Assembly (NCBI RefSeq): GCF_022045235.1
Contig: NW_027266308.1
Coordinates: 53,816,001 to 53,880,000, forward strand
DNA from: Haliotis cracherodii
Lineage: Eukaryota
DNA length: 64,000 nucleotides
Direction: 5' to 3'
Shown here: piece by piece, positions 25,878 to 42,019 of the stretch
Numbering within the stretch: the first letter of the stretch is position 1
Layout of the letters: each line of letters opens with the position of its first letter
Notes under the pieces: generated by a model
Told to the model about the DNA's origin: nothing
What the model saw: only the letters and a program-made list of their open reading frames with translations
Databases searched by the model: none
Made by a program: the position numbers and the translations under genes

Positions 25878-28252
25878 GATCCATGACAACATTTTGATCT
25901 ACGTGCGTTGTGTAACTTGTAAATTGGGTCACTTGTAATGAAATTATGTCAAACACAAAGAGTCTACAGTTTTCAAAAGAAACCAGACACTCTGTTTTAA
26001 CCAATAGGTGAATACTACTAGTCTGCTGGTTAGAAACGATGTTGCAAAAGAAGCAGTGCTCAATACGTCTTCTGTGGAAATCTCGTTTAAGGTTTGTCAT
26101 CAAAGTGTTTCAGTCTTTAACTTTCGTATAAAATGACATAAGCGAACAATGTCTCTACTTGTTGGGGCTTTCCAGCCTTATACGGGTGGCAGCATGGTAG
26201 AGAGTAGTACACAATTATCATCAAAAGCAGGGAATTGTATGGTGAGGGATAAAAGGGGCATGTGAGGCTACTTACTATCGGTCATTTACTGGACAACAAT
26301 TATGGTTAACAAAACGTCCGTTGTGCGGTGCTTGGTAATGTTTTGCATACCGTTTAATGCGGATCTCAAGGAGATGTTGAATTACATGTTTAAATGTATG
26401 TGATTAGGCGTGACGAGTTATGTCGACCAACAATCTTGACTCGATTTAGTCACGAATGAAATCTTTATTAAGCCCATTGCTGAATATATTATACACACCT
26501 GGAAAAACGTTAAGCACCCCCTCCTGTTGTAGCTATGAGTTTTGAAACCTGTTCCCTGACCCCAAATCTTTGGCATACAAAGCAGAACATTTCATTGGGT
26601 GTATTATTGGCAAAATTGGTACGCGATTTAAGTATGGAGCTGGAGGGTTCCCTATATTGTTATGGCTGGTAAGATGCTAACTACAAATGACCAATATGGC
26701 TTGAACAGGACTGTGTAACTACCACTTGCCCTGATAACTGCTTGAACATTCTCCACATAACCCCAGTGACTGATGCGTTCCTGGGGTAGGTTTTCCCATT
26801 CTCAGTGCAATAATGCTTGTGACAATTCCTGTAGTTTGACTACTGTTGGGTCCAGGTTTGCGCGACAGTGATCATCTTTGTCATGGGGCACTAACTTCTT
26901 CCCACGTGTATCCATGACGGACTACTTGGGGTTTTACACTCTGTTTCAGTATTCAGTTTGTTACTTTAACGCCTATTATCGTTTGGCACATGGATTGTTA
27001 GTTCATATAACATACGTTTTGTTATATCATGTCAATATAGTGCAAAATCATATTTTTGATTGTGTGTATTGTAACACTTCAGCATTTTAGCTGAACACTA
27101 CACTTTACTTTGCAGTGGCGTTAACGAGCCTTTCACTGGGTGGTGCAATATCATCGTTTCAGTTGACTCAAAGAGTACATTTATGTCACAGTAGCCAATA
27201 TGTTTAAAACAAATATCAGATTTTGCTTGGGATGTTCCGGTAATTGCTTAACACACCAAATGGACTAGTAATGACCTGTCGAGATGAATAGTGGCGAAAA
27301 TATGAAAATCCCAAACGTTGAGTATGTATAATAACTCAACGTTGCCCCCTTATAAACCTCAATTTGATGAGGATATTTGAGTTGCAAAATATAGAGCAAG
27401 GAACCTTTTGTTTTGAGCAAATATTTGTTTATGAGGGTTATTCCAGGGTATATGTCCCTTCCAGGGTTGGAACGTTGAGCTGTCTTACATATTGCTTTGC
27501 CTTACAATTCGATAACACTGTTGTTCAAAAAGCAAGGAACTTTCCATACTTTGGTGTACTAAGAACAAATACAGTAGTTATGTGACACTGTAGATTATTA
27601 TGGCTACATTTTAAAGGTGTGGCGAGGCACTAATATAGAGACGTTTGTGCGCGTGCGTGTGCGTGCGTGCGTGCGTGCGTGTGTGCATGCTTTATGCACT
27701 GTTAGTTTTATGGTGCTAGCCCACTGAGATACCAGGCCGCAGTTTAACATAAATACCCCGCTCGGACATAGAATACTCCGATCTCCGACCAGTCCTTGTT
27801 TTTGACCCTTAATGCAGAGCGCCAGACAGGAAAATAACGTACCATTTTTAGCGTCTTTCGGTATGAACCACCGACCATCTCCGGGCGCTATCAACAAGAC
27901 CACAGAGGTGGTCGCTACATAGTCATTGGCTGGATACACCAAACTGAGTGTCTACATGTACTTTGCTCCCTTTGGCGATTGCCCATTCTAAACGGCATTT
28001 TCAAATAAAGTCTTTTCCTATTTGAAAAGTTAATTAATTTCTCACCTTGAAAGAAGAGTCCCTTGTTTGGAGTGATGCTTGTGTCGGGCGGTGTTAAAGC
28101 TGAGAACCGCGTCTTGTGTCCAGTAGGGTTGTTTGTGTAATTACGTTATTACTGTTGTGTTTTTGGAAACAATTGCATGGTCACTTTTCATTTAATTTTT
28201 TCAAATATAGTTTTGAGACTAATAATTGGGGTGCCGGTTTGCTAAAATGGGA

Positions 28253-28413
28253 NNNNNNNNNNNNNNNNNNNNNNNNNNNNNNNNNNNNNNNNNNNNNNNN
28301 NNNNNNNNNNNNNNNNNNNNNNNNNNNNNNNNNNNNNNNNNNNNNNNNNNNNNNNNNNNNNNNNNNNNNNNNNNNNNNNNNNNNNNNNNNNNNNNNNNNN
28401 NNNNNNNNNNNNN
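28253..28413. other. Assembly gap (161 N)
   Basis: Run of N. Confidence 1.
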
Positions 28414-30161
28414 GAGCTACGCCACAATTGTTTTTCTTTTGTTTGTTTGTTGTATAACGCCGCACTCAGCAATATTCCAGCTAAATAATCGCGTCTGGAC
28501 CAAACAATCTAGTGATTGACATCATGAGCATCGATCCACGTAATTGGGGTCCGATGAAATGCATCAGTTAAGTCAGCGAGACTGACCACCTGATCCCGGT
28601 CGTCGCTTATTACGACAATCGCGACAACTGACGCATGTCTTGGTCATTTACCACAAGCACCGATATGGTGCTTCCAATATAAGAATGACAATGCGAGCAA
28701 ATCTGGGATTCGAACCACGACCACTGAATGATAACACGTCCAAGGGGCGCAACTCTGCCAAGCGAATTGCTGCTTGTACGAAGCGTGATCGCAGGAATGC
28801 CAAAATATTCAGGAACATTCTGACAGGCCATATCAATTGTCAATGGGGGTTTCCATCCCCATAATCATCTATAGTCTGCTTTATGGTGAGTTGAAATGGG
28901 GTTTAACGTCGTGTTCAAGGTAATGGAACGTAGCTATATAAGTGCAAAATTCTTGAACACGACGTTAACCTCAATTTCACCTTACCTCAATGAGACGCTT
29001 TTAACATTATTCCAGTTATATCCTGGCGTGTCAGCTCAACGTGGGAAAAGGCCCGAAGTGAAGCAGGTCTCAGACGTTTACCACTTCGGTGAAACCCACG
29101 AGCTCGGGTGTGGTGTCGACAAACCTAGAAACAATCGGGGCGAACCGGTATTTGAACGCACAATCATAGGTTTCTGGCGTGCCCAAGGGACGCAACTCTG
29201 CACAGCGAATCGCGGCGTCTAAGACGACTGGGCCACCCGTGCCACCCGTGCCCCCTCACCTCAAAGAGAGGCGTAATTCTACACACAAACATACATACCA
29301 GGTATGGATGAAAACGTCCACGCCAAACTACGATTGACTGTTTGAGTCTATGCTGATTATGTTTCACTTTTTGTGAGTTTTCCCAGGACGTTCAACCTTG
29401 ATATTATCATGTAGTTGCCCCAGCAGATAAGCTGAATATTGGTCATTAATGGTCAGGCCTTTCGGGAGGGAGTCACCTATTAGGAGGATCCCTTTGGGAT
29501 CCCAGAAAACCGAAGACATGTTGCCAGCTGATGAAACAGGGCTAGCTATAGGAGACGTTTAATGGTTCCATTAACTGTGGTTTAGTCTCTGGCTGATGTG
29601 AACCCAAGAGTTATCCATGGTTACAAATCCATGGTTACAAATCGCTGAAACACATCGGCTGGGTCTTCTTCAAAACGGCTGGGTCTTCTTCAAAACGACA
29701 AGCAAGGACCCGTTCTGACAGACCAGGATCCCCTTTCGGCTGTTTCATTGTATATAGCATGAATAACATTTCAATTGTGAAGAATCATCACAATCCATAG
29801 TTTGGTGTGTGTGTGTGGGGGGGGGGGGGGGGGGGGAAGAGTTTCATACAGCCCAGTTGCCATATTCCTGTCATATCATGGTGACATCTAACTAATCAAG
29901 CTGTGACCTGTATAGTCAGTGATGAAAAGCAATTCTAAAAGCATGTGCAACATTCATGGTGACATTGATGCACACATCTCACACTCTCCATTTGGTTCTC
30001 ATTTTGGTCCCCATCAGATGCCGAGGACCTATTGCACAAAGGAATCCCCATTGGGTACATACTCATGTTCACATCATATGAATCTGCTTAACACTTGTAA
30101 AATGAGTTGATCAGCTCACTGGTGAGGAAAAAGTAATCAAATACTTCTAACTTTGAAACAT

Positions 30162-30167
30162 TTTATT
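30162..30167 (-). promoter_or_regulatory. Probable polyadenylation signal (AATAAA) of eIF5
   Basis: Overlapping AATAAA hexamers on the minus strand ~870 nt after the stop codon, followed by T-rich sequence. Confidence 0.55.
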
Positions 30168-31031
30168 TATTACATAATTTAGTAATATATAGTTGTTTCA
30201 TTGTGTACAGAGTACCTCAAGAGTAAGCAAACAATACCCCACATGAATAGCACATACATCCCAGCACTGAAGCCACAGTTGTCTCACAGATGAAGAAACG
30301 GATCACTATAGGATGTACTATAAAATAGCAAAGCAGACATTTTCTCAAAGCCTCCTTAAAACTTAAAAACAGAACTTCACAAAAATATACAAGGCTACAA
30401 CAAAGTGATACAATACACAGCTTCATAGAACATACCATAAATCAAATCACTAAAACAAGCTGCATCATTTCATCAAGTTAGTCTTGAAAAGTCAGTCCAT
30501 GCAAAACTCAATGGGTCAATTTTGAGAGTCCTTGCAACTGCAGGGAAACAACTCTGGTGGGGAAAAAAGAATTTAAGAACCACAGACCTCCAAAGAAAAT
30601 CAAATGTATGTTTACAACAAAAGTGCTAAACTTCAACAAATTCCCAATATACAAATAAGGTTGATTACAAACATAAAGACAAGCCGACATATCTACAATA
30701 AACATTGAAAATCGGTTCTGATCAACCCTTTAAACAATGATATATTAATAAATTATGCTCTAGGTGATCAGATAGTGGTCAAATAGATGAAAGCCTGGAT
30801 AACATATCTGAGACTTATCAGACTCAAAGTTCCATATTGGCTGAATGTTTCCGATGACTGGTATAACTGTAACTGGCGGCCCATCCTAACCTACAAGAAT
30901 GTTCACAAGAAAGTCAACAGAACAGCCTAGTCTTCTCCCCTGTGATAGTACATCTGTGCTAGATAGATAGATAGCTATGAAGCTTGCAGTTAGACGGGGA
31001 GTGCTAGCTTGGTCTGCCAGTGGGGCATCAT

Positions 31032-34000
31032 CTAGATGTCATCTATGTTGAAGTCATCTATCTCAGCAGTTTCAGGTTTAGGCTTCTCCTGCTGGCCAAC
31101 CCTCTCAGTTGTGGAGTACACAACCTGAAACAGATCATAAAATGAGTTACTGCAAAAGAATTAGCTACTATATTATTAAGAAAAACTGAGTAAATTAAGG
31201 ACCTGCTTCTCAATTAATCAACAAACCCTGCTGCAGTCAAACATAAGCCAATTTAAGATTCCATATTCTGAATGCAGTCATGACGGACAACCATTTGTAA
31301 AATGAAATCCCTACTTCATTGTAAATGAGACATATAAGTATTTAAAAAAATACCCATCGGTGACAAAGTTTGGCATAAAAGGCTGTATATTCAACTTATA
31401 TTTAGAATACTCAAAAATGAAACCCTATCAACTCGCACGGATGTCAAAGTTGAATCTATCATAAGAACCATCAAGGTCAAGGTCATACTTTTCATCAACA
31501 TATATACATAAACTGTAACATCCATGAATATAGAGAACCAAGAGAATTGATAAAATGTTTAAATGACTCAAATCGTGGAAAATAGATCAACTGGATATAG
31601 AATTAGGTACTTCAAAATGTGCTTTTCCTGCAACTGTTTTAGTGTCAATAATGATGCCAGTTTCTAAATAGGAAAGCCATAATGACATGTTTTGCCATAC
31701 CTCCAGGTTTTCATCATCATCTTCATCTTCCGTTTCCTCTTCAGCTTCTTGCAACCATGTTATGAATGGTGCAGCCTTCTCATGGATCTCCGCCGCAACT
31801 TGCTTCGACACATATTTCTTAGAAACCTGTAAACAATTTTCAAAGTGATAATTTTGGGGAAACTATCAAGCAATTCTGTACTGAACATCTGTTAAAAAGA
31901 AAATGAGTATTATGCTGAAAAGCTACATGTGATGAGCAGAAAAATATTCTATATATGTAACTTACTTAAAAATGCTTATAACCAGCAGAAACTCAAGGGT
32001 GCCATAATGGCAAAGATCACTACTTTAAAGAAAGAATGTTGCCAGCCGCAGTCAGTAATATTTCAGCTAAATCAACAGTCTGAAAATAATATTAACCCAA
32101 AAACCCAACAACCCACTTACTGATAACATAAGCAACAATACACACAACCAGGGTATGATGGAATTAGTCAAGATCAGTCAAAGATACACATTTAGTCACA
32201 TCCTACAAAAGCATCGGGTACTGGTGACCTAATCTGAACTGGAATATTTGAAGAAGCTGGTCATGTCTAGGTGTCTAAAGTGAGACTCGAGGAAATGGGC
32301 CTTACCTTCTTTGCCCAGTCTAGTAGCACTTCCTCCTCCAGGATGTCGGTATCGTACAATGCTTTGAGGATGTGAGGCATCTTAGGCAGCAGTGTGTCCT
32401 TGTGAACATTCCCCACCAGCTGCTCAAGGCCCCCCAACAGGTACTTCTGGGCTTTCTGGTTGCCATGGCAGAACTGAAAAAGGCAATACAGCCAATACCT
32501 TTTGAACATTGTCGGGAAATGACAACTGTAAACATATTTATCATGTTTATAAGGCTAAGTAACAGGAAAATGCATAATCTTTAATACTTCAAATGCTTAA
32601 TGCCTGTTTGTTCAGAGTTCAGTCTGCATTACAGTTACATTGTAGGGGAACTATTTGCCGCAACATACACCTGGATTTAATCGGTGGGGGGGTGGGGGGG
32701 TGAGGGGGTGGGTGTGTTGGGGTAGAGTGACAGTTAGGGGCAGCAGTGAACAAACAGTTCTCTGCGGAGTATCCTGTTAAACATGTAACATACACAAGAA
32801 TATATGGACTGTCATAAATATTTGTTCAGAAAAGGGGCACTAGTGAAGATTACATACAGATTGGTTTAGAAGTTGGTCAGGAGGCTTATGGGAGCGGGGC
32901 ACTTAATAGGGGTGAATGTCAGCAAAAAGACTTAGGTATTCCTAGTAACACATGTATGATCAAGCTTATCCGACATATAAAACTCATAATTTTCATTCAA
33001 AGGTAAGCAAGATAAATGTAGAGTACCTTAAATCTAATTCAAATATGCAGTCAGAGTGTTTTTTCTCAATCAAGAATCTTGATGGGGAATCCAACACAAA
33101 GAAACTCATCATGTCTGCATTAGACTTAATTGTAGAACCTTGAACAGGCAGGTGTGAATATAAGAGGATAAACAGGAACTGTTCACAAACAACCCAGCAT
33201 GAATGTACTTTTACTTTGAACATGGATGACAAGTCATTCACATTCTTAAGTTGATGACACTGCCAAAGATGACATACCACTCGGAAGAGCTTCTCATGCT
33301 CTTTGAGCTGTGCAAGGATCTTGGCACCGAGCAGCAATTCCACCAGAATTAGAGTAGCTTTGTCCTTCACCTCCAGCCTCTCAGCCTCAGAAACCACTTC
33401 CTTAAGGGTACTCTTCAAAGTTCCATTGTCACGACGTGTCTAGAGAATAAAGTAAGTCAAGAGTATTGTATAATGATCAGGACAAATCTGACTTTCAAAA
33501 GAATGACCTGCAGATCCAGGCAACCAAGGGAATCAACTATGCACGGCGCGTTACAGCATCTCAGAACTGATCAATCATGTAGTCAAATCAGCATGATTAA
33601 AAGTTAGCCTCATCTCAATATGGTTTTTGATGCTGCGACACTGGGTACTGATTGAGCATTATTTCAATGTTTGGGGAATACAGTATCAAAGCCGACCAGT
33701 CTTTGTTTTAGCCCCTTAACTCTTTCAACACCTGTCAACCAGAAGTGTTTACTGCTGGGACACCTAGTTCCCGGAGACTCTTGTGTGATAGATGAAGCCA
33801 ACATTTATCAAAGAAAATATCTGCTTGTAAAACATCTTTGCTACCATGTGTTATACACAATTTGAAAGGTCTGATCCTATGGTTCATAAATATGAAAGTT
33901 ATGTTTATCACATTATTTAAAAAATGCATTTACAACTTAATTAATTTTGTTGTAAATAAAAAAATATATGCTAACACGTTGATAACGTCCAGATTAAGGA

Positions 34001-37000
34001 AGCAAAAAATAGACGATTTTCGGCAAATATAAGATTTAATAAAATCCACCTACCTATTACTGTTTTATTTCCATTGTTTACGTAAGTGAAATCATTTTAA
34101 AAAGAATTATAAATAGTATCTGTCATCATATGTTCCCAATAACAGCGGCTGTTCGGTCAGTAACATGAAGAAATACCCCCTATTCGAGGCTTTGTATGAA
34201 TAACACTTTCGAAGACTGGCATATGAAACACCGCCAGAAAGCTTATTCCTTCATGTACATGCTCGTAACATCACCTGCAGTTTTTTCGTAGTTATGACAT
34301 ACAATTTCATTGGATAAAAATTGGTTTCTAATGACACTTTCTTGACAAAATCTGCTACAAGCTTCGTGATTGGTCTAATTTGAGTACTTGACCTAAGGCA
34401 GACAATCAAAATTACAGCTATTGTACTGCCTCGTGGATATTAAAAACTTCAAAGGTTGACGCAAGATTTTTGTTAACTCATGTTATACTGATAGTTTTAA
34501 GCAGCAAATCACAATATATATTAAAAATAAGGAACTTTGTGAATGTATCGTGCAAGGTTACGAGATGTGACAAAGATTTTTTATGCATATATTTTTGCAA
34601 TAAACATCGTGTCCGAGCCGAGAATTCAAGGCGACAAAAGCCAAGATGTCATTTGACTTACATTACACAGAAATGTCTTTATTTTGCTCTTTGACATGTT
34701 CGATGTGGACCCATTGTCAAGTGTGCCCGAGAATTTTATTTTCAATAACATTGCTGGAAATGGTGAATATTTTTTTAATATATCAATAAATAAAAAATGA
34801 TAAATTGAAATGGAATACATATTTCAGACATTGTGAAATGTGATAGATTTAATAAATGAATGATATGACAGGTAGGTTCATAAAAATATATACTATTTTG
34901 ACGTGACTATGGCTTGGTCGGTAAACCAGCCTATGGTGTCTGGGTACTCGATGCTTCTGGCAGGTATACCGGCCTACGGTGTTGAAAGAGTTAATGCTGA
35001 GTGTCAGGGCAGGGTAACAACAGGGTAAACGCAGCTGGGTACCACAGAGACAGTCTTGTAGCCATTCAACACTCAAGTTTACCTCAATGTATTTGTAGAG
35101 AATGTCAACCCTTTCCTCCGATGTTTTTTCAAGATCTTCTGTGAAAGCAAGTCCTTTAGCTGCATCCGTCAGTTCTTGCATCCGCTGTTTGATGGCTTCC
35201 GCACTTGTCTCCTCACCCCAGTCATCATCGTCAATCTCACGTGTCTGGATCAAAACAAACATAGGAGTATACATTTCCACCACAAAAAATAACATAGCAA
35301 ACAAAATCACAAAATTTATTGGATGACATATCAGTGTTTTTTCTCAGTCAAGATTCTTGATGGGGAATCCAACACAAAGTAACTCATCAGTTTTGCCATA
35401 CCAAATAGTTGCAAGGAAAGTAGATGTGTAAACTGTCACAGAGACTCATTCCATTTTTTCACCAGAATGCATCAAACAATATTATCTGGCACAACTTTAT
35501 GCTATCAAACGATGCTAACATAGATAACATTATACTGTAGAAGTGGTCACATGAAAGCAAAACAAAAACATTCTTTGTACCATAATCTTGAGTAAATAGG
35601 TATAGTACAGCATGAGTATGGCCTTCTTATGGTTTGATAAGCATAATAAAACTGTTAAGGGAGAATTCTGGTTAGGCAGGGATGTCGCAACAAATGCATT
35701 ATTCAAGGGCGAAAACTGTATTAAGATGTGACTGACCTCCTCAGGTGGAGCATCAATGACACCTCCAGAAGCCCGCTGAGCAGCCATTTGTTCCTGTGCG
35801 TTGACTTCTGGGCTGGCACGATCATCCTCCTTCTCCCCATTCACTGTTCCTTTCTTGCTTCTCTTTTCCTTCTTCTTGCCACCTTTCTGGGGTGTCGTCG
35901 ACACTTCCTTAAATTTAGAAGTAATTAATGCAAAAACAGTTCATTGCTAAATCATTCTATTTATTTTTCTGACTTACATTCAAAACTAACACTGAAGGGT
36001 ATGGGGCAATTCTGTTCCCTGTACCTAGGGAAAACACAAATCACTTTAAATAATAATGACACAAAATAACAATATGCCACTAGAATTTGTTGGAAGTCTC
36101 AAACCAATAAATGTACTACATACCATGTCTGGTGGATTCTTCAAAATGTAAGTGGTGACTTTATGAGTCAATGGGATGTTGCCAGTATACCCACAAGCAA
36201 TGCAGCGCTGGGATATGGTTTGTTTCTTGGCATGAACAGTCTGCAACAAAATATAAACTTGTACTGTCAATGTCTCACATGCATGAAACATTTGGGCATT
36301 TTGTGGAGACAAGTCTTTTTGTGATAAAATGAGGAAGTGAAAGACAAGACTATGGTAATTGAGCAGTCAGAGTGTTTGTTCTCAGTCAAGACTCTTGATG
36401 GGGAATCCAACACAAAATAACTCATCATACCTGCATAAAAACAATTTTAAAATAAAAAAATCTGTGACATGAGCCTCTAGTCTAGTAAAATTTCAATCTG
36501 ATAAGTTCAGAAAATACATGAAATTTTAGTCCATATATCAGGATAATATATTCACAATTAAATCTACTGAAAATGGTGCTGAGACAACTTTGGGCTTGCA
36601 AACTCAATTTTTGTCACAGACTTATTTAACATAACACATACAAATAGACACACAATTATGAAATGAAACCATTTATTCTTAAAAGTGATCATCGACCATC
36701 GAAAGCCATGTTAGCTTCATCCTACACTGGGCTAGTCTAGGGATCAATCAACTTACAAGATTTGTCTCCGGATTGGAGCATTCCGGACACAAGACAAATT
36801 TCTTGATAAAGCCGTCAAGCAGATCCTGAAGCTTGTTGGATTCGTGAGAGCCATTGACAATGAAGCGATCGTTTTTTAAATCGAACTGGGTTTGAGCGCC
36901 AAGTTCACAGCCAAAAAACTTGGTGGGATCTGAAAATAAATTAACAGCAGCATCAGTGAATGTTAACAATGTCAAACTGTGAATCATTACAATCTGCCTA

Positions 37001-37960
37001 GTAACAAGTGTGAAAGAATCAAATGAACATGTTCTGAAAATACAGAGACAGAAATGTTGATCTTAAAAAAGGCAGCTCAAAATTAGCTTGTTAATTCCAT
37101 CCCAAAGCATGGTTCTGTATTGGACTTAAATGTGTGTGTGAGTGAGTAAGTGAGTATGGTTTTACGCCGCTTTTAGCAATATTCCAGCAATATCACGGCG
37201 GGAGACACCAGAAATGGGCTTCACACATAGTACCCATGTCGGGATTCGAACCCGGGTCTTCAGCGTGACGAGCGAACGCTTTAACCGCTAGGATAGCTGA
37301 CCGCACCTGGACTTAAAGGTAAAGTAAGTCAAACAAAGACCAAGTGACACCTGGTTTTCATTAAGCTTTGTACATCTAGAATCATGTCAAGCTTTGTAAT
37401 CATTCAAACTTACAAGTCGGAGGCCGTGCTAGGGCTTTGGCGATCTCCGGCATATTCACAATAACTGTTTTGATTCCATTTCCCTTTCCTTCCACCTGCA
37501 TTGAAAGAAATGTCATTGTTAAGACTTGTACATGTTGTACGCAGAAGAAAAATCACTACAGTATCCAAATATATATACATATCAGTCATGCATTTTTTTA
37601 ATGATTTGATCCAAGGCATTTAATCAGTTATTAACCAACATATTTTGTCACTATATCCTTCCTGAGAAACACTGGTTTGATCGGCATAGTTCAAAACATT
37701 TGAAAGAAACTTAAAATGTGATGTTTCATAGGTGTTTTTTCCTTGATCCTCGTTTCGCCTTAAAACATATTTCCATGAGATCAGCAATATCAATCCTTAA
37801 GGTAGATACATGACTTCCACAATACTTCTTGGCCAACAGTTACCTGGAATGGATGTTATAAGCAATAATACAACAGTAAAATGCTTACCTTGGCTAAGAG
37901 ACGAGGCATCTTGTAACGGTAGAAGGGGTCGGTATTGCTTCTATCAATGTTGAACGACAT
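31032..37960 (-). CDS. EIF5: Eukaryotic translation initiation factor 5, 10 coding exons, 441 aa
   Basis: Exons 37960-37889 ([24 protein letters not shown]), 37495-37414 ([10 protein letters not shown]), 36929-36757 ([14 protein letters not shown]...CPECSNPET), 36240-36124 (CIACG), 35907-35737 (AAG acceptor), 35244-35083 (DDDDW), 33439-33278, 32473-32306 ([16 protein letters not shown]2 AA-box 1), 31826-31701 ([13 protein letters not shown]-box 2), 31124-31032 (...NIDDI*). Total 1326 nt, phases consistent. Confidence 0.98.
33045..33120 (-). ncRNA. Intronic box C/D snoRNA, copy A (eIF5 intron between coding exons 7 and 8)
   Basis: Minus strand: stem atgcag, C box ATGATGA (33112-33106), guide gttggattcccc, C'-like ttgattga, D box CTGA (33054-33051), stem ctgcat. 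Confidence 0.88.
35323..35399 (-). ncRNA. Intronic box C/D snoRNA, copy B (eIF5 intron between coding exons 5 and 6)
   Basis: Stem atggca/tgtcat, C box cTGATGA (35390-35384), identical guide, D box CTGA (35334-35331); ~86 nt upstream of the 3' splice site. Confidence 0.85.
36363..36434 (-). ncRNA. Intronic box C/D snoRNA, copy C (eIF5 intron between coding exons 3 and 4)
   Basis: Stem gcag/ctgc, C box ATGATGA (36428-36422), identical guide, D box CTGA (36370-36367). Confidence 0.88.
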
Positions 37961-40900
37961 CTTGATAGATTTTTCTGATAAGGTTTCCTCTTCCTATGAA
38001 TACTACTATCTGCTTGATTTAAATGAGCAGCTTGCTTGAGGAACTTCATAAACCTTTCTGACGAAACTTTCCCCAAACCACTTAGCTCTGGTTCTATTAT
38101 TCTTGTATGCCACCACAAGGGCCCTGCAACATCAAAATCATTCAATGTTTATTGACTTGTCACCCCAAAAAGTGATAGTCAGAATACTTCATGAGGTTGA
38201 TGTTGTTGGTGTTGATTGTTGTTTAACGCCACACTCTGCAATATTCCAGCTATATGATGGCTGTCTGTAAATGATCAAGTCATAATCCATTGATTGACAT
38301 GAGCATCAATCTACACAATTGGGATACGATGACAGACATCAACCAAGTCAGCAAGTCTGACCACCCGATCCTGTTAGTCGCCTCTTACAACAAGCAGTCA
38401 CATAGGCAAGCATGGGTTGCTGGAGACCTATTCTACCCCTTATTTTCACAGGATACTTCATAAAGAGTATCTTCCATATCACTACAAAACCCAGAATAAC
38501 ACAGACACCTCTATTCAGCGACATAATAATTGAGTGTTGAGGGCATGCAAAACCAACTTAATTTGTCTAAAACATACTGCCAAAACCTTGAACAGGATGC
38601 AATACATTTTCATTGATAGGGCCAACATTTTATAATACCTTTAATATTTTGGATTATTTTAATAAAGAAGCTGATAGATGTGACTAAAAATATTACAAAA
38701 ATATAGTTGTTGATTTCTTATCATTATTGCATGTGTTATGTTCAACTTTCATTTTGTTTTATTTTGCTTCAATACAACACTTCATCATTAATTAGTGAGT
38801 GAGTGAGTGAGTTAAGATTTAACGTCACATCGGCAGTATTTCAGCCATATCGTGACGAGAAGTACATTAATAATACACATAATTATACGAAATCAAAAAC
38901 TGTCGACGAAGGACAGTAAAATAACTAGATTTATCACAGATCATGTCTAAAACTAGTAGTTAGCAATAAAAATATAACAACATACGAAACAATACAAGAT
39001 AAAAATGAGCTATAGATCGCCAGCCACTGAAGAGAGATCACCATGCTAGGGTCCATGGGGACTTACAGTACTTTTGCTACCTGCATGGACCCTAACCGGA
39101 TTTACATCATCCCTTCAGCAGTTGGCGATTATTGACAAATTTAGCAAACATTAAAATAACACATATGCTACGATTAAAACCGTGGTACAAATAAATATAC
39201 TTTGAAAGACGTGGTCTTACATACCCTCTTAGGGGGACAATAATTTTACACTACTTCAACCCCCTTCGAGGATATAGCCACTAACGATCTCAGTTATTAA
39301 TTTTATTCGACCAATTATAAAAAAACTGATTATGTACAGAAAATAACATTCAAAATTTATGCAATAATTCAATTTCCTTTAAAAAAACAATAATTAAATG
39401 AGAACTAATAGTATTTAAAAGATCCTTCATAGATGTAACCTTGAAATAGTTATCCCTTGTGATGGAAAAATCAATGCAGTCAAGCAGGACATGCTTGACC
39501 GTGATTCTTTCATCACAAGGGACACAGAATGGAGGATCCTCACCTTTTAAAATATATTCATGAGTATAACGTGAATGGCCAATACGACATCGTCTTAAAA
39601 TGACCTCTTCAAATCTGGACTGACAACCCAAGTAGGTATAACCGATATTCGCATCAATTAAAACATGTAGAGTTATTCCAAATATAAGCATCAAGAATGC
39701 GTGAAGTGAAATGGGGTTGAACATGTTGAAGATTATGTTGTTCTATAATGTTAGCTACCATGCCACAGTTTTAACATGAATACCACTAGACCAAGGTCCC
39801 ATAACTTGATAAAGATGAAGAAATTGCACTTTAACAAATTATATATCCATACAAGCGAGTTTGATTTGACACCTCTTTTAGCAATTTTCCAACGATATCA
39901 CTGCACCGAACACCAGAAATGGGCTTCCCACATTGAACCCATGTCGGGACTCAAACCCGGGTCTTCGGCTTGATGAGCAATTGCTTTAACCACTAGGCTA
40001 CCCCACCGAACCTATATCCATACAAGGCAGCATTATTATGAACTGCAATTAAAAGACTAAAATACATAACATATGGTCATTTTCACTTTCAAGATACCAC
40101 AGATTTTTCCTGAACAAACTCAAGTGAAATATGTCAACATGGTTATCAGTCTGTGTCAGTTGTAAGGAACTTTCCAGCTGCTTATAATAGGTCTGAAGAA
40201 ACTTAGTGTTCTTGCTTCACTCCACTAGGCAAAAATCCCATATGTATCCAATCAATCCATTTATTGGAAGTCAAACAGCTAAGGAAGTGAATTAGCTCTA
40301 CTTTCATGACCTTGTCCGAGAAAAAAATAAACTAGAGCTTTTTTACAACCTAATGTGACTGTTTGCCTGATGTTTGTTGTTACGCAACAGTCAGCAATAT
40401 TTCAGCAATATCACTACAGCCTGGAAATGATCCAATCAGAACTAGAAACTAGATCCCCACAGGAGTGTCAACCTTTCTATCAACATGACAATCCTTCTTG
40501 ATATGCTACAAATCTAGCCCTTAAACAAATATATCTGAAACAGCCCATGCCATTCTATATATGTTCATTTCAGAGACTAGATGTTAGTCTATCTACTAGT
40601 CCTATGGTTAGCATAATCATTAGTCCTAGTTGGCTATAGGCCTGTAAATGTGTATTTGATTAACACAGCACTTAACAATATTAAAGCTGTATGACAGCAG
40701 ACTAATTAATCTGAACCAGACAATCCAGATATTGAGATTATGAGTAACAAATCACGCCATTGGGGTAAGATGACACACTGTCAACTTACTTGGTGACCGA
40801 AATGATACTATAGTTGGTAATAACTAATTAAATGGGGAACTATGCTCACTGTGCTAGCCATTTCCAGTCTAGGTCCAGACATTTAAATAAGTGCCATGAG

Positions 40901-41532
40901 TGAACCCACACGCACCATTTCAGTGTGCAATTAGTAGATTATCATACGTCTGTATATCCAAACGTAAGGGCTGTCTGAAAGACTTGCTAGGATAGTCAGC
41001 TGGTCCGACCATGGTCCCCCTCATTAATACTTGCACTCAAAGCATGTTGTTACATTTCAATTTACTTTGTAACAGCATGTGAAGGTTAGAATTAGTTAAA
41101 TTGTTTTATACTGACCTTGTTCGAGAGGTGAAATCATTAATAATTCTCATGATAGCTAACTATGCTGCCTTATTAGACAATATATGGTCAATGACGTATC
41201 ACAAAATACCAATCCTTGAAAGGAAGACTTTGGTAGCAATCAAGCGACGGCAAACACCTACGCCACGTGTTGGTGTCGCAGATATAACACAGAGCAATAT
41301 GGCCGACACTTCAACATATTTCATCATAATAGAACATGTCTACGACAATTTAAATCGACAACTGACTTAATTGTAAGTTAAAAACATCAAACTTACCGTC
41401 TGGTCGCACAAACGTCATAAAAACGCTAAAAATGAGCGAAGAAATTTGTAAGCAAACTGTAATTGGCAATCGCCCTGGGGAACTTGGTCCCAATATGTTA
41501 GATGAAATCTTCCTTCTACGAGTATTTCTCAT
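37894..41532 (-). promoter_or_regulatory. Spliced inhibitory uORF in the eIF5 5' leader (three in-frame poor-context AUGs, overlaps the eIF5 start out of frame)
   Basis: Leader exons 41542-41397 and 38123-37889. uAUGs at 41532 (ugu AUG a), 41418 (uuu AUG a) and 38049 (uuu AUG a) share one frame across the splice. Stop at 37896-37894 lies inside the eIF5 CDS. Main AUG context is aag AUG (A at -3). Confidence 0.85.
38795..39652 (-). mobile_element. 5'-truncated non-LTR retrotransposon (I/Nimb-group LINE) 3' end in the eIF5 leader intron
   Basis: ORF2 C-terminus SRFEEVILRRCRIGHSRYTH...PPFCVPCDERITVKHVLLDC (RxRIGH plus CCHC zinc knuckle typical of I-group elements), a 3' UTR and a (tcac)n tail. 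Confidence 0.85.
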
Positions 41533-41660
41533 ACACCAGAATCTGAAAATACAATACAAATAAATAAATAAACCAAGCTGATGAATAGTAAAAACTGATT
41601 ACAAAAGTCAAACAATTAACACGAGACAATGCGAAAGTTCAACTACGTTCGTCCACATAC

Positions 41661-41700
41661 TTCTCCCACTCTGGTAGCGCTATGACAGAATGCCCGGATG
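41661..41700 (-). other. Putative non-coding first exon / TSS region of eIF5
   Basis: Donor gggagaa|gtatgt at 41661/41660; CpG-richer sequence immediately upstream; TSS position not determinable. Confidence 0.5.
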
Positions 41701-42019
41701 AACACGCACCGACGTGCGCGCAAAACTATCTTCCAATGAACTGTTTAGAAGGTCCGTGACATTCAACATAATAGATATATGTTAATCGTTTCCACCTACG
41801 CAACCCTTTCAACGTATTGCAAAATCGAACGTAAACACATACTGTTTTATATACAGTGACACAGCAACATACTACTGTGCTTAACAAACGTTTCTTTGTA
41901 TAATGACGGGTACACATGTACCACTTTCTGTCGCTAATTTCCTCAATTGAAATGGATTAAGCTTGAAAGAAACATTAAAATCAAATAGTTGTCAGATAGT
42001 GCAGTAAAGTGAGAGATTA

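Follow-up and report, generated by a model that had tools for sequence, protein, structure and literature searches.

What is the short sequence that recurs in three introns of one abalone gene, and on which RNA would it act? This question is raised by the window analysed here, that is, the whole stretch of 64,000 nucleotides (nt) from Haliotis cracherodii (contig NW_027266308.1, positions 53,816,001 to 53,880,000 of the forward strand), in which the gene of the translation factor eIF5 carries the repeat. The copies are box C/D small nucleolar RNA (snoRNA) genes, intronic and sense to a spliced host, as is the norm in animals. Judged mainly from homologues in mammals and plants, they would guide the 2′-O-methylation of the third G of GGGGAAUCCGAC in 28S ribosomal RNA (rRNA), the equivalent of human Gm3627, a reading to which we give a probability of about 0.8.

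Three intronic copies and the RNA they produce

The repeat is 74 nt long and is present on the minus strand at 33047-33120 (copy A), 35325-35398 (copy B) and 36363-36436 (copy C), within eIF5 coding introns 7 (33277-32474), 5 (35736-35245) and 3 (36756-36241), respectively. The first-pass annotation, made from the letters alone, had claimed three copies of one core in separate introns, sense to eIF5, and this is what was found. Over the 74 nt, identity with copy A is 81-91%, and a 17-nt core has three exact occurrences in the window, where chance would give 0.22 on average even with up to three mismatches allowed, none of 100 shuffles giving three. Each copy consists, in order, of a C box, a 22-nt spacer with GUUGGAUUCCCC at its end (invariant in A, B and C), the string AUCAAGA-N-UCUUGAYUGA, an A-rich stretch and a D box. 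The expected C and D boxes are thus in place in every copy: the D box is CUGA throughout, and the C box is AUGAUGA in A, C and a fourth copy in the gene CCT4 (copy D, described below), with the non-consensus CUGAUGA in B. It has been reported that CUGAUGA is also the C box of an expressed Drosophila U14 copy (PMC11014333).

In copy A (mature RNA of 67 nt, 33049-33115), the C box is located at 33112-33106, the guide at 33095-33084, the likely internal D′ box CAAG at 33081-33078, the C′ box UGAUUGA within 33073-33066 and the D box at 33054-33051, and an external stem AUGCAG/CUGCAU is formed between 33120-33115 and 33050-33045. Copy C (mature RNA of 67 nt, 36365-36431) has its C box at 36428-36422, its guide at 36411-36400, the likely D′ box CAAG at 36397-36394, the C′ box UGACUGA within 36389-36382, the D box at 36370-36367 and a stem GCAG/CUGC at 36434-36431 and 36366-36363. 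Copy B (about 65 nt, 35329-35393) has the C box CUGAUGA at 35390-35384, the guide at 35373-35362 and the D box at 35334-35331, preceded by a 2-nt deletion. External stems of 4-6 base pairs (bp) are found in all four copies, as had been foreseen, although not a different one in each: there are two sequence types, GCAG/CUGC being common to A and C, and AUGGCA/UGUCAU in B resembling that of the CCT4 copy. The D-adjacent region, once described as variable, is nearly invariant, the single substitution in C and the deletion in B being its only changes. Moreover, the palindrome noticed between the two boxes is real, but instead of closing on a 1-nt loop it forms 5-6 bp around a loop of 3 nt (-2.2 to -2.8 kcal/mol), covering the D′/C′ region. 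The D′ box here is degenerate (AUCA or CAAG) and the C′ box contains a one-base insertion, a pattern common to the consensus lines of SNORD101 and snoR60.

Expression was examined by mapping reads from three raw microRNA sequencing runs of one study (X19-X21; 57-62% of each run used) to positions 31000-38100, in which nearly all of the depth was on the minus strand, within the three snoRNA bins. Reads at least 99% alike to this DNA made up 695 of 753, 618 of 693 and 537 of 601 mapped reads in the three runs. The 5′ end of copy A lies at 33115 (376/387, 311/322 and 280/284 reads) and that of copy C at 36431 (311/324, 281/290 and 259/265), and a third end at 35393 (32/38, 37/45 and 43/45) has B or the CCT4 copy as its source; at each of the three sites the 5′ ends are 3 nt before box C. 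At the other side of copy C, 12 reads of X20 stop at 36365 with adapter, 2 nt past box D, which gives 67 nt, and the 3′ end of copy A is inferred from that of copy C. In mature box C/D snoRNAs, boxes C and D typically lie a few bases inside the ends. That is to say, the RNA of about 70 nt that had been predicted appears in public small-RNA runs as one of about 67 nt with sharp ends. The B/CCT4 class accounts for 4.5-7.4% of read starts, and the bulk of the RNA comes from A and C; the loop letter shared by B and D is carried by 40, 66 and 48 reads, of which no more than 6, 26 and 2 match the CCT4 copy at 99%.

Clan homology and the probable methylation site in 28S rRNA

The best Rfam match of all four copies is SNORD101 (RF00186, clan CL00074), with 32.6 bits for A, 29.6 for C, 34.3 for the CCT4 copy and 19.6 for B; the overlapping match to snoR60 of the same clan scores lower on these copies. 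When the SNORD101 model was run on the whole genome, three matches at E<=10 were obtained among 64 candidates scored, namely the CCT4 copy, A and C. The Rfam search suggested by the first-pass annotation therefore leads to a clan with a validated target, a homology which that annotation had overlooked. The consensus of SNORD101 reads GGAUACCCC-UU-CACU...AUGAGUGA, mouse Snord101 reads GGAUACCCC-UU-CACC...AUGGGUGA (PMC11863803), plant snoR60 reads GGAUUCCCC-UU-CAGG...AUGGgUGA, and the abalone copies read GGAUUCCCC-AU-CAAG...UUGAYUGA. The feature of the clan, a D′-side guide GGAU(A/U)CCCC followed by WUCA and directed against GGGGAAUCC of large subunit (LSU) rRNA, is thus present in abalone. By this comparison of sequence, the abalone RNA is a homologue within clan CL00074 and likely the SNORD101 orthologue.

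The likeness to SNORD101 (U101) extends to the length, the distance from C box to guide (within 2 nt), the D′-side guide ending in CCCC, the two-base spacer followed by CA, the one-base insertion in C′ and the 28S segment addressed. The abalone RNA differs from it in a guide U where mammals have A, which leaves the pair with 28S perfect and breaks that with the proline transfer RNA (tRNA-Pro), in a G:U where mammals have G:C, and in its four copies in eIF5 and CCT4 introns; the human host gene is RPS12. With plant snoR60 (AtU60), it shares the identical GGAUUCCCC guide core, the same spacer, CARG next to it, the inserted C′ box and an intronic location in housekeeping genes, which in plants are fibrillarin genes (PMC8053127); the host genes differ, and the copies score lower on snoR60 than on SNORD101. 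Arabidopsis snoR12, the guide of 25S Am2127, addresses the same rRNA segment at a site two bases downstream, but it is a separate RNA with a second target, Am945, and the abalone copies gave no Rfam match to snoR12. In addition, yeast U18 and snR48 also have off-consensus C′/D′ motifs, the C′ box of U18 being inserted too; their families and targets are different, and the yeast RNAs serve two sites from one guide.

In this genome, the 28S gene as delimited by Rfam occupies L009 3428-7144, with GGGGAAUCCGAC at gene positions 2392-2403. The first-pass annotation had proposed that the invariant segment pairs over 12 bp, with one G:U, with a conserved LSU sequence, and this pairing of GUUGGAUUCCCC holds on the genome's own 28S, where GGGGAAUCCGAC is the best antisense match in the ribosomal DNA (rDNA) unit for all four copies. 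On the D′ side, a contiguous 12-bp helix beside the box was reached by 8 of 500 shuffles, and on the D side a helix of 8 bp only was reached by 262 of 500. The D-adjacent segment is accordingly probably not an rRNA guide, in agreement with the earlier opinion. The surrounding sequence (G000:C10:29299000-29308999) holds a complete rDNA unit with a period of about 9.45 kb, and at least 14 matches to 5.8S rRNA were seen on several contigs.

Which base of the segment is methylated has been established in other organisms. Human SNORD101 was connected with 28S Gm3628 (also numbered Gm3627 or 3606) by PARIS2 and RiboMeth-seq (PMC10576143); in mouse, Snord101 is listed as the guide for G3283 in supplementary rows (PMC11863803), and its knockdown abolished methylation at 28S-G3283 wholly (bioRxiv 2024.09.19.613955). 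In Arabidopsis, Gm2125, in the context CGGACAAGG-Gm-GAAUCCGAC, is equivalent to human Gm3627 and is assigned to snoR60 (PMC8583080), and it is lowered in fib1-1, where U60.1F is not expressed (PMC8053127). It has been reported that human G3606 is 74 nt before C3680 (10.1101/037259). Since the first G of the segment is 76 nt before C3680 in human 45S coordinates, and 76 nt before the equivalent C in the abalone 28S, this second route, like the Arabidopsis context, places the site at the third G of GGGGAAUCC. The guide ends in CCCC-AU-CAAG in abalone, CCCC-UU-CAGG in plants and CCCC-UU-CAC(U/C) in mammals, and because this spacing is the same, the third G (28S position 2394, L009 5821) is the likely abalone site, with CAAG as the working D′ box under the +5 rule. 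The degenerate D′ box would begin two bases past CCCC, and the fifth base upstream of it would pair with the third G. Following established box C/D biology, exonucleases would trim the spliced-out eIF5 intron and so release the snoRNA, its ends would be protected by the Snu13/Nop56/Nop58/fibrillarin core, and fibrillarin would catalyse the methylation. The first-pass annotation had left the site ambiguous between a G and the following A (28S position 2396); a G is retained, the A is disfavoured, and the register is set by the known target of the homologues.

Several points weigh against assigning this function to the abalone RNA. All four copies score below the RF00186 gathering score of 47 bits, and no gathering-level match was found in the window, so the RNA is filed as a clan homologue and not as a formal member of RF00186. 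The snoR60 model (RF00339, gathering score 40 bits), run genome-wide with 60 candidates scored, did not return the copies; its sole match (26.2 bits, on C23, elsewhere in the genome) was rejected, being without C and D boxes. Consensus folding of the four copies gave covariation in 0 of 14 pairs of the internal fold. Of 60 shuffled guides, 8 attained the duplex energy on 28S of -22.2 kcal/mol; taken by itself, the pairing exceeds chance only to a moderate degree, and the case for the target rests on homology. A naive D+5 count from AUCA as D′ points to the first A, as does the automated column for human SNORD101. Runs X19-X21 were chosen by a coded species label, their species may differ from that of the window, and the runs are three samples of one study. 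As for the literature, human G3606 was earlier assigned to SNORD12 (10.1101/037259) or "SNORD31?" (PMC11014333), a zebrafish relative is described with a different antisense element (PMC7668251), and the mark is given as absent in Xenopus laevis (PMC8797249) and left blank for yeast and Dictyostelium in the comparison of PMC11014333, which means that the mark is not obligatory.

Copies in the genome and competing explanations

A DNA search of the whole genome (1.18 Gb) returned four places, namely A, B, C and a fourth about 0.5 Mb away on the same chromosome-scale contig. A 20-mer search found the same four exact matches, together with five two-mismatch matches lacking the rest of the snoRNA; these searches score top candidates only, so that four copies is a lower bound. 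The fourth copy (L010 5005-5071, G000:C45:54356004-54356070, minus strand) has intact boxes and lies in sense orientation within an intron of the TCP-1 delta subunit gene, CCT4. The flanks of A, B and C are mutually unrelated, as had been noted from the window, but those of B are not unrelated to everything: B and the CCT4 copy agree in the stem, in letters of the spacer and, beyond the 3′ end, over about 60 nt of flanking DNA (score 47, shuffled 95th percentile 23; the one significant result among 12 flank comparisons). A flank shared in this way with no poly(A) tract suggests that one member of the pair was copied from the other at the DNA level, from one housekeeping host gene into another. 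Both loci are also contained in the DNA contigs of run X15, which come from a second organism; a 65-nt contig with roughly twice the depth agrees there with the CCT4 copy, starting at box C and continuing beyond box D, and B in that organism may accordingly be without the 2-nt deletion.

A loose pattern of boxes plus guide has 52 matches in the genome, 48 of them outside the family. The four-copy profile, applied to the flanking DNA of 23 of these 48, yielded only a 10.2-bit fragment without D box, and the remaining non-family matches were judged from the matched strings alone. The fragment (L037 3142-3168, plus strand; G000:C56:27189142), in which UGAUGA precedes the 13-nt guide string, lies within an intron of a gene with EGF repeats; it is probably due to chance and possibly a decayed copy.

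It is unlikely that AUCA serves as the D′ box, so that the first A of GGGGAAUCC, the equivalent of Arabidopsis Am2127, is methylated instead of or besides the third G. AUCA resembles CUGA more closely than CAAG does, the guide in abalone places a U opposite this A, which keeps the +5 pair intact where human SNORD101 has A opposite A, and the A is indeed methylated in Arabidopsis (PMC8583080). Plant snoR60, however, which does not differ in this U or in the spacing, has the G as its assigned target, the A (Am2127) being attributed to snoR12 (PMC8583080), and the A is listed as unmodified in fly and human and modified only in Arabidopsis, by snoR12 (PMC11014333). It has also been reported that off-consensus C′/D′ motifs can shift or double the sites: yeast U18, with a C′ insertion of the same kind (AUGAGUGA), directs two positions from one guide, and snR48 directs two sites two bases apart (PMC5389607). 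It is therefore conceivable, with low probability, that the A in abalone is marked as well. A true two-site guide, in which overlapping AUCA/CAAG D′ boxes and the inserted C′ box mark both the third G and the A, as plant snoR60 and snoR12 do together, and whose protostome profile finds the guide still missing in Drosophila, is a slim prospect.

That the pairing of the RNA with 28S or with tRNAs leads to no abalone rRNA methylation, the RNA acting like a chaperone or on tRNA, is quite improbable as well. Such a role finds backing in human SNORD101, the guide of which was also found cross-linked to tRNA-Pro and tRNA-Glu (PMC10576143), in the loss of the rRNA mark in some lineages (PMC8797249, PMC11014333) and in a D′ box far from consensus, although equally degenerate D′ boxes are functional in mammals and plants. 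The human duplex with tRNA-Pro (GGGGUAU/AUACCCC, 7 bp; PMC10576143) needs the guide A; the abalone U in its place breaks the helix, and against its own tRNA-Pro (8 D-arms at 4 loci) the abalone guide forms an interrupted, weak pairing of -11.2 kcal/mol, compared with -22.2 on 28S. This suggests, at the level of sequence, that the tRNA-Pro pairing of the mammalian guide A is common neither to plants nor to abalone. Finally, it is hardly conceivable that the copies represent a short mobile element or a chance repeat of introns and not a functional RNA gene. The eIF5 introns do contain high-copy repeats (X15 DNA-contig depth at 33607-35028 and 36925-37398), and one copy has moved between genes. 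Against this, three methods give four copies in 1.18 Gb within their top-scored candidates, all sense in introns, the reads are strand-specific with ends of the box C/D type, and the family is homologous to SNORD101/snoR60; since the copies are few and not dispersed, a transposon, named by the first-pass annotation as the outcome that would overturn it, is excluded. The preferred reading remains a guide for the third G.

Among genomic tRNA observations, a tandem tRNA-Pro array with alternating AGG and TGG anticodons and a 592-nt period extends over at least 28 kb (L060-L062, G000:C11:16719498 onwards). The D-arm motif of tRNA-Pro has 186 matches genome-wide, 183 of them on one strand. An Rfam tRNA search gave Thr and Asp genes only among its matches.

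The host gene and the reach of the family

The host gene eIF5 (31032-37960, minus strand) has 10 coding exons encoding 441 amino acids in an open frame, and all nine introns are GT..AG. Exons 1-5 are located at 37960-37889, 37495-37414, 36929-36757, 36240-36124 and 35907-35737, and exons 6-10 at 35244-35083, 33439-33278, 32473-32306, 31826-31701 and 31124-31032. The model is identical to one NCBI Haliotis eIF5-like protein in 441 of 441 residues and to another in 440 of 441, and the Pfam domains eIF-5_eIF-2B (PF01873) and W2 (PF02020) are above their cut-offs. From box D to the 3′ splice site the distance is 126 nt in C, 86 nt in B and 577 nt in A. A second C/D-like string in an eIF5 intron, at about 33560-33630, was rejected, with zero reads and no Rfam support. 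Human EIF5 does host the H/ACA RNA SNORA28, as the first-pass annotation had it (PMC11347989); in abalone no Rfam match to H/ACA families was found in 28000-42000, and 50-nt microRNA libraries are poor for H/ACA RNAs.

The neighbouring sequence contains several repeats. In intron 6, the window segment 33700-34990 is a high-copy repeat insertion with terminal inverted similarity, of very high DNA-contig depth in run X15, and the contigs suggest that it is absent from this position in the X15 organism. A tRNA-like short interspersed repeat is present in two copies, 80% alike, at 37148-37308 and 39853-40013, and the former is missing from a long X15 contig spanning the site. Finally, at 28885-28986, among repeats, there is a 35-bp inverted repeat (86% complementary), with microRNA-family scores far below cut-off.

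The guide family has so far been described from chordates and plants, as given in PMC10576143, and no paper on a SNORD101-family snoRNA in molluscs was found in a literature search made mostly on titles and abstracts, with subscription papers and assembly annotation outside its scope. The abalone family is an invertebrate homologue of a known guide, that is, an RNA of an ordinary and known kind, and with it the family is extended to a mollusc, at scores that annotation based on cut-offs would likely miss. The probable copying of the snoRNA between eIF5 and CCT4 would be recent. Plants, mollusc and mammals have kept the same off-consensus D′ spacing, and a plain D+5 prediction consequently picks the wrong base. 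This bears on Drosophila, in which the same site, Gm2502, has a MethScore of about 0.91 and is reported to belong to the 3 of 61 sites that lack a guide (PMC11014333). The guide strings gave no matching snoRNA sequence in the supplement of that paper, and the wrong-base D+5 prediction may be the reason why the Gm2502 guide has escaped. Among the Drosophila orphans listed there, Or-CD11a-c (62-65 nt, three copies in RpL28; PMC11014333, Table S6) are similar to the abalone family in size and arrangement and are a candidate lead for that guide.

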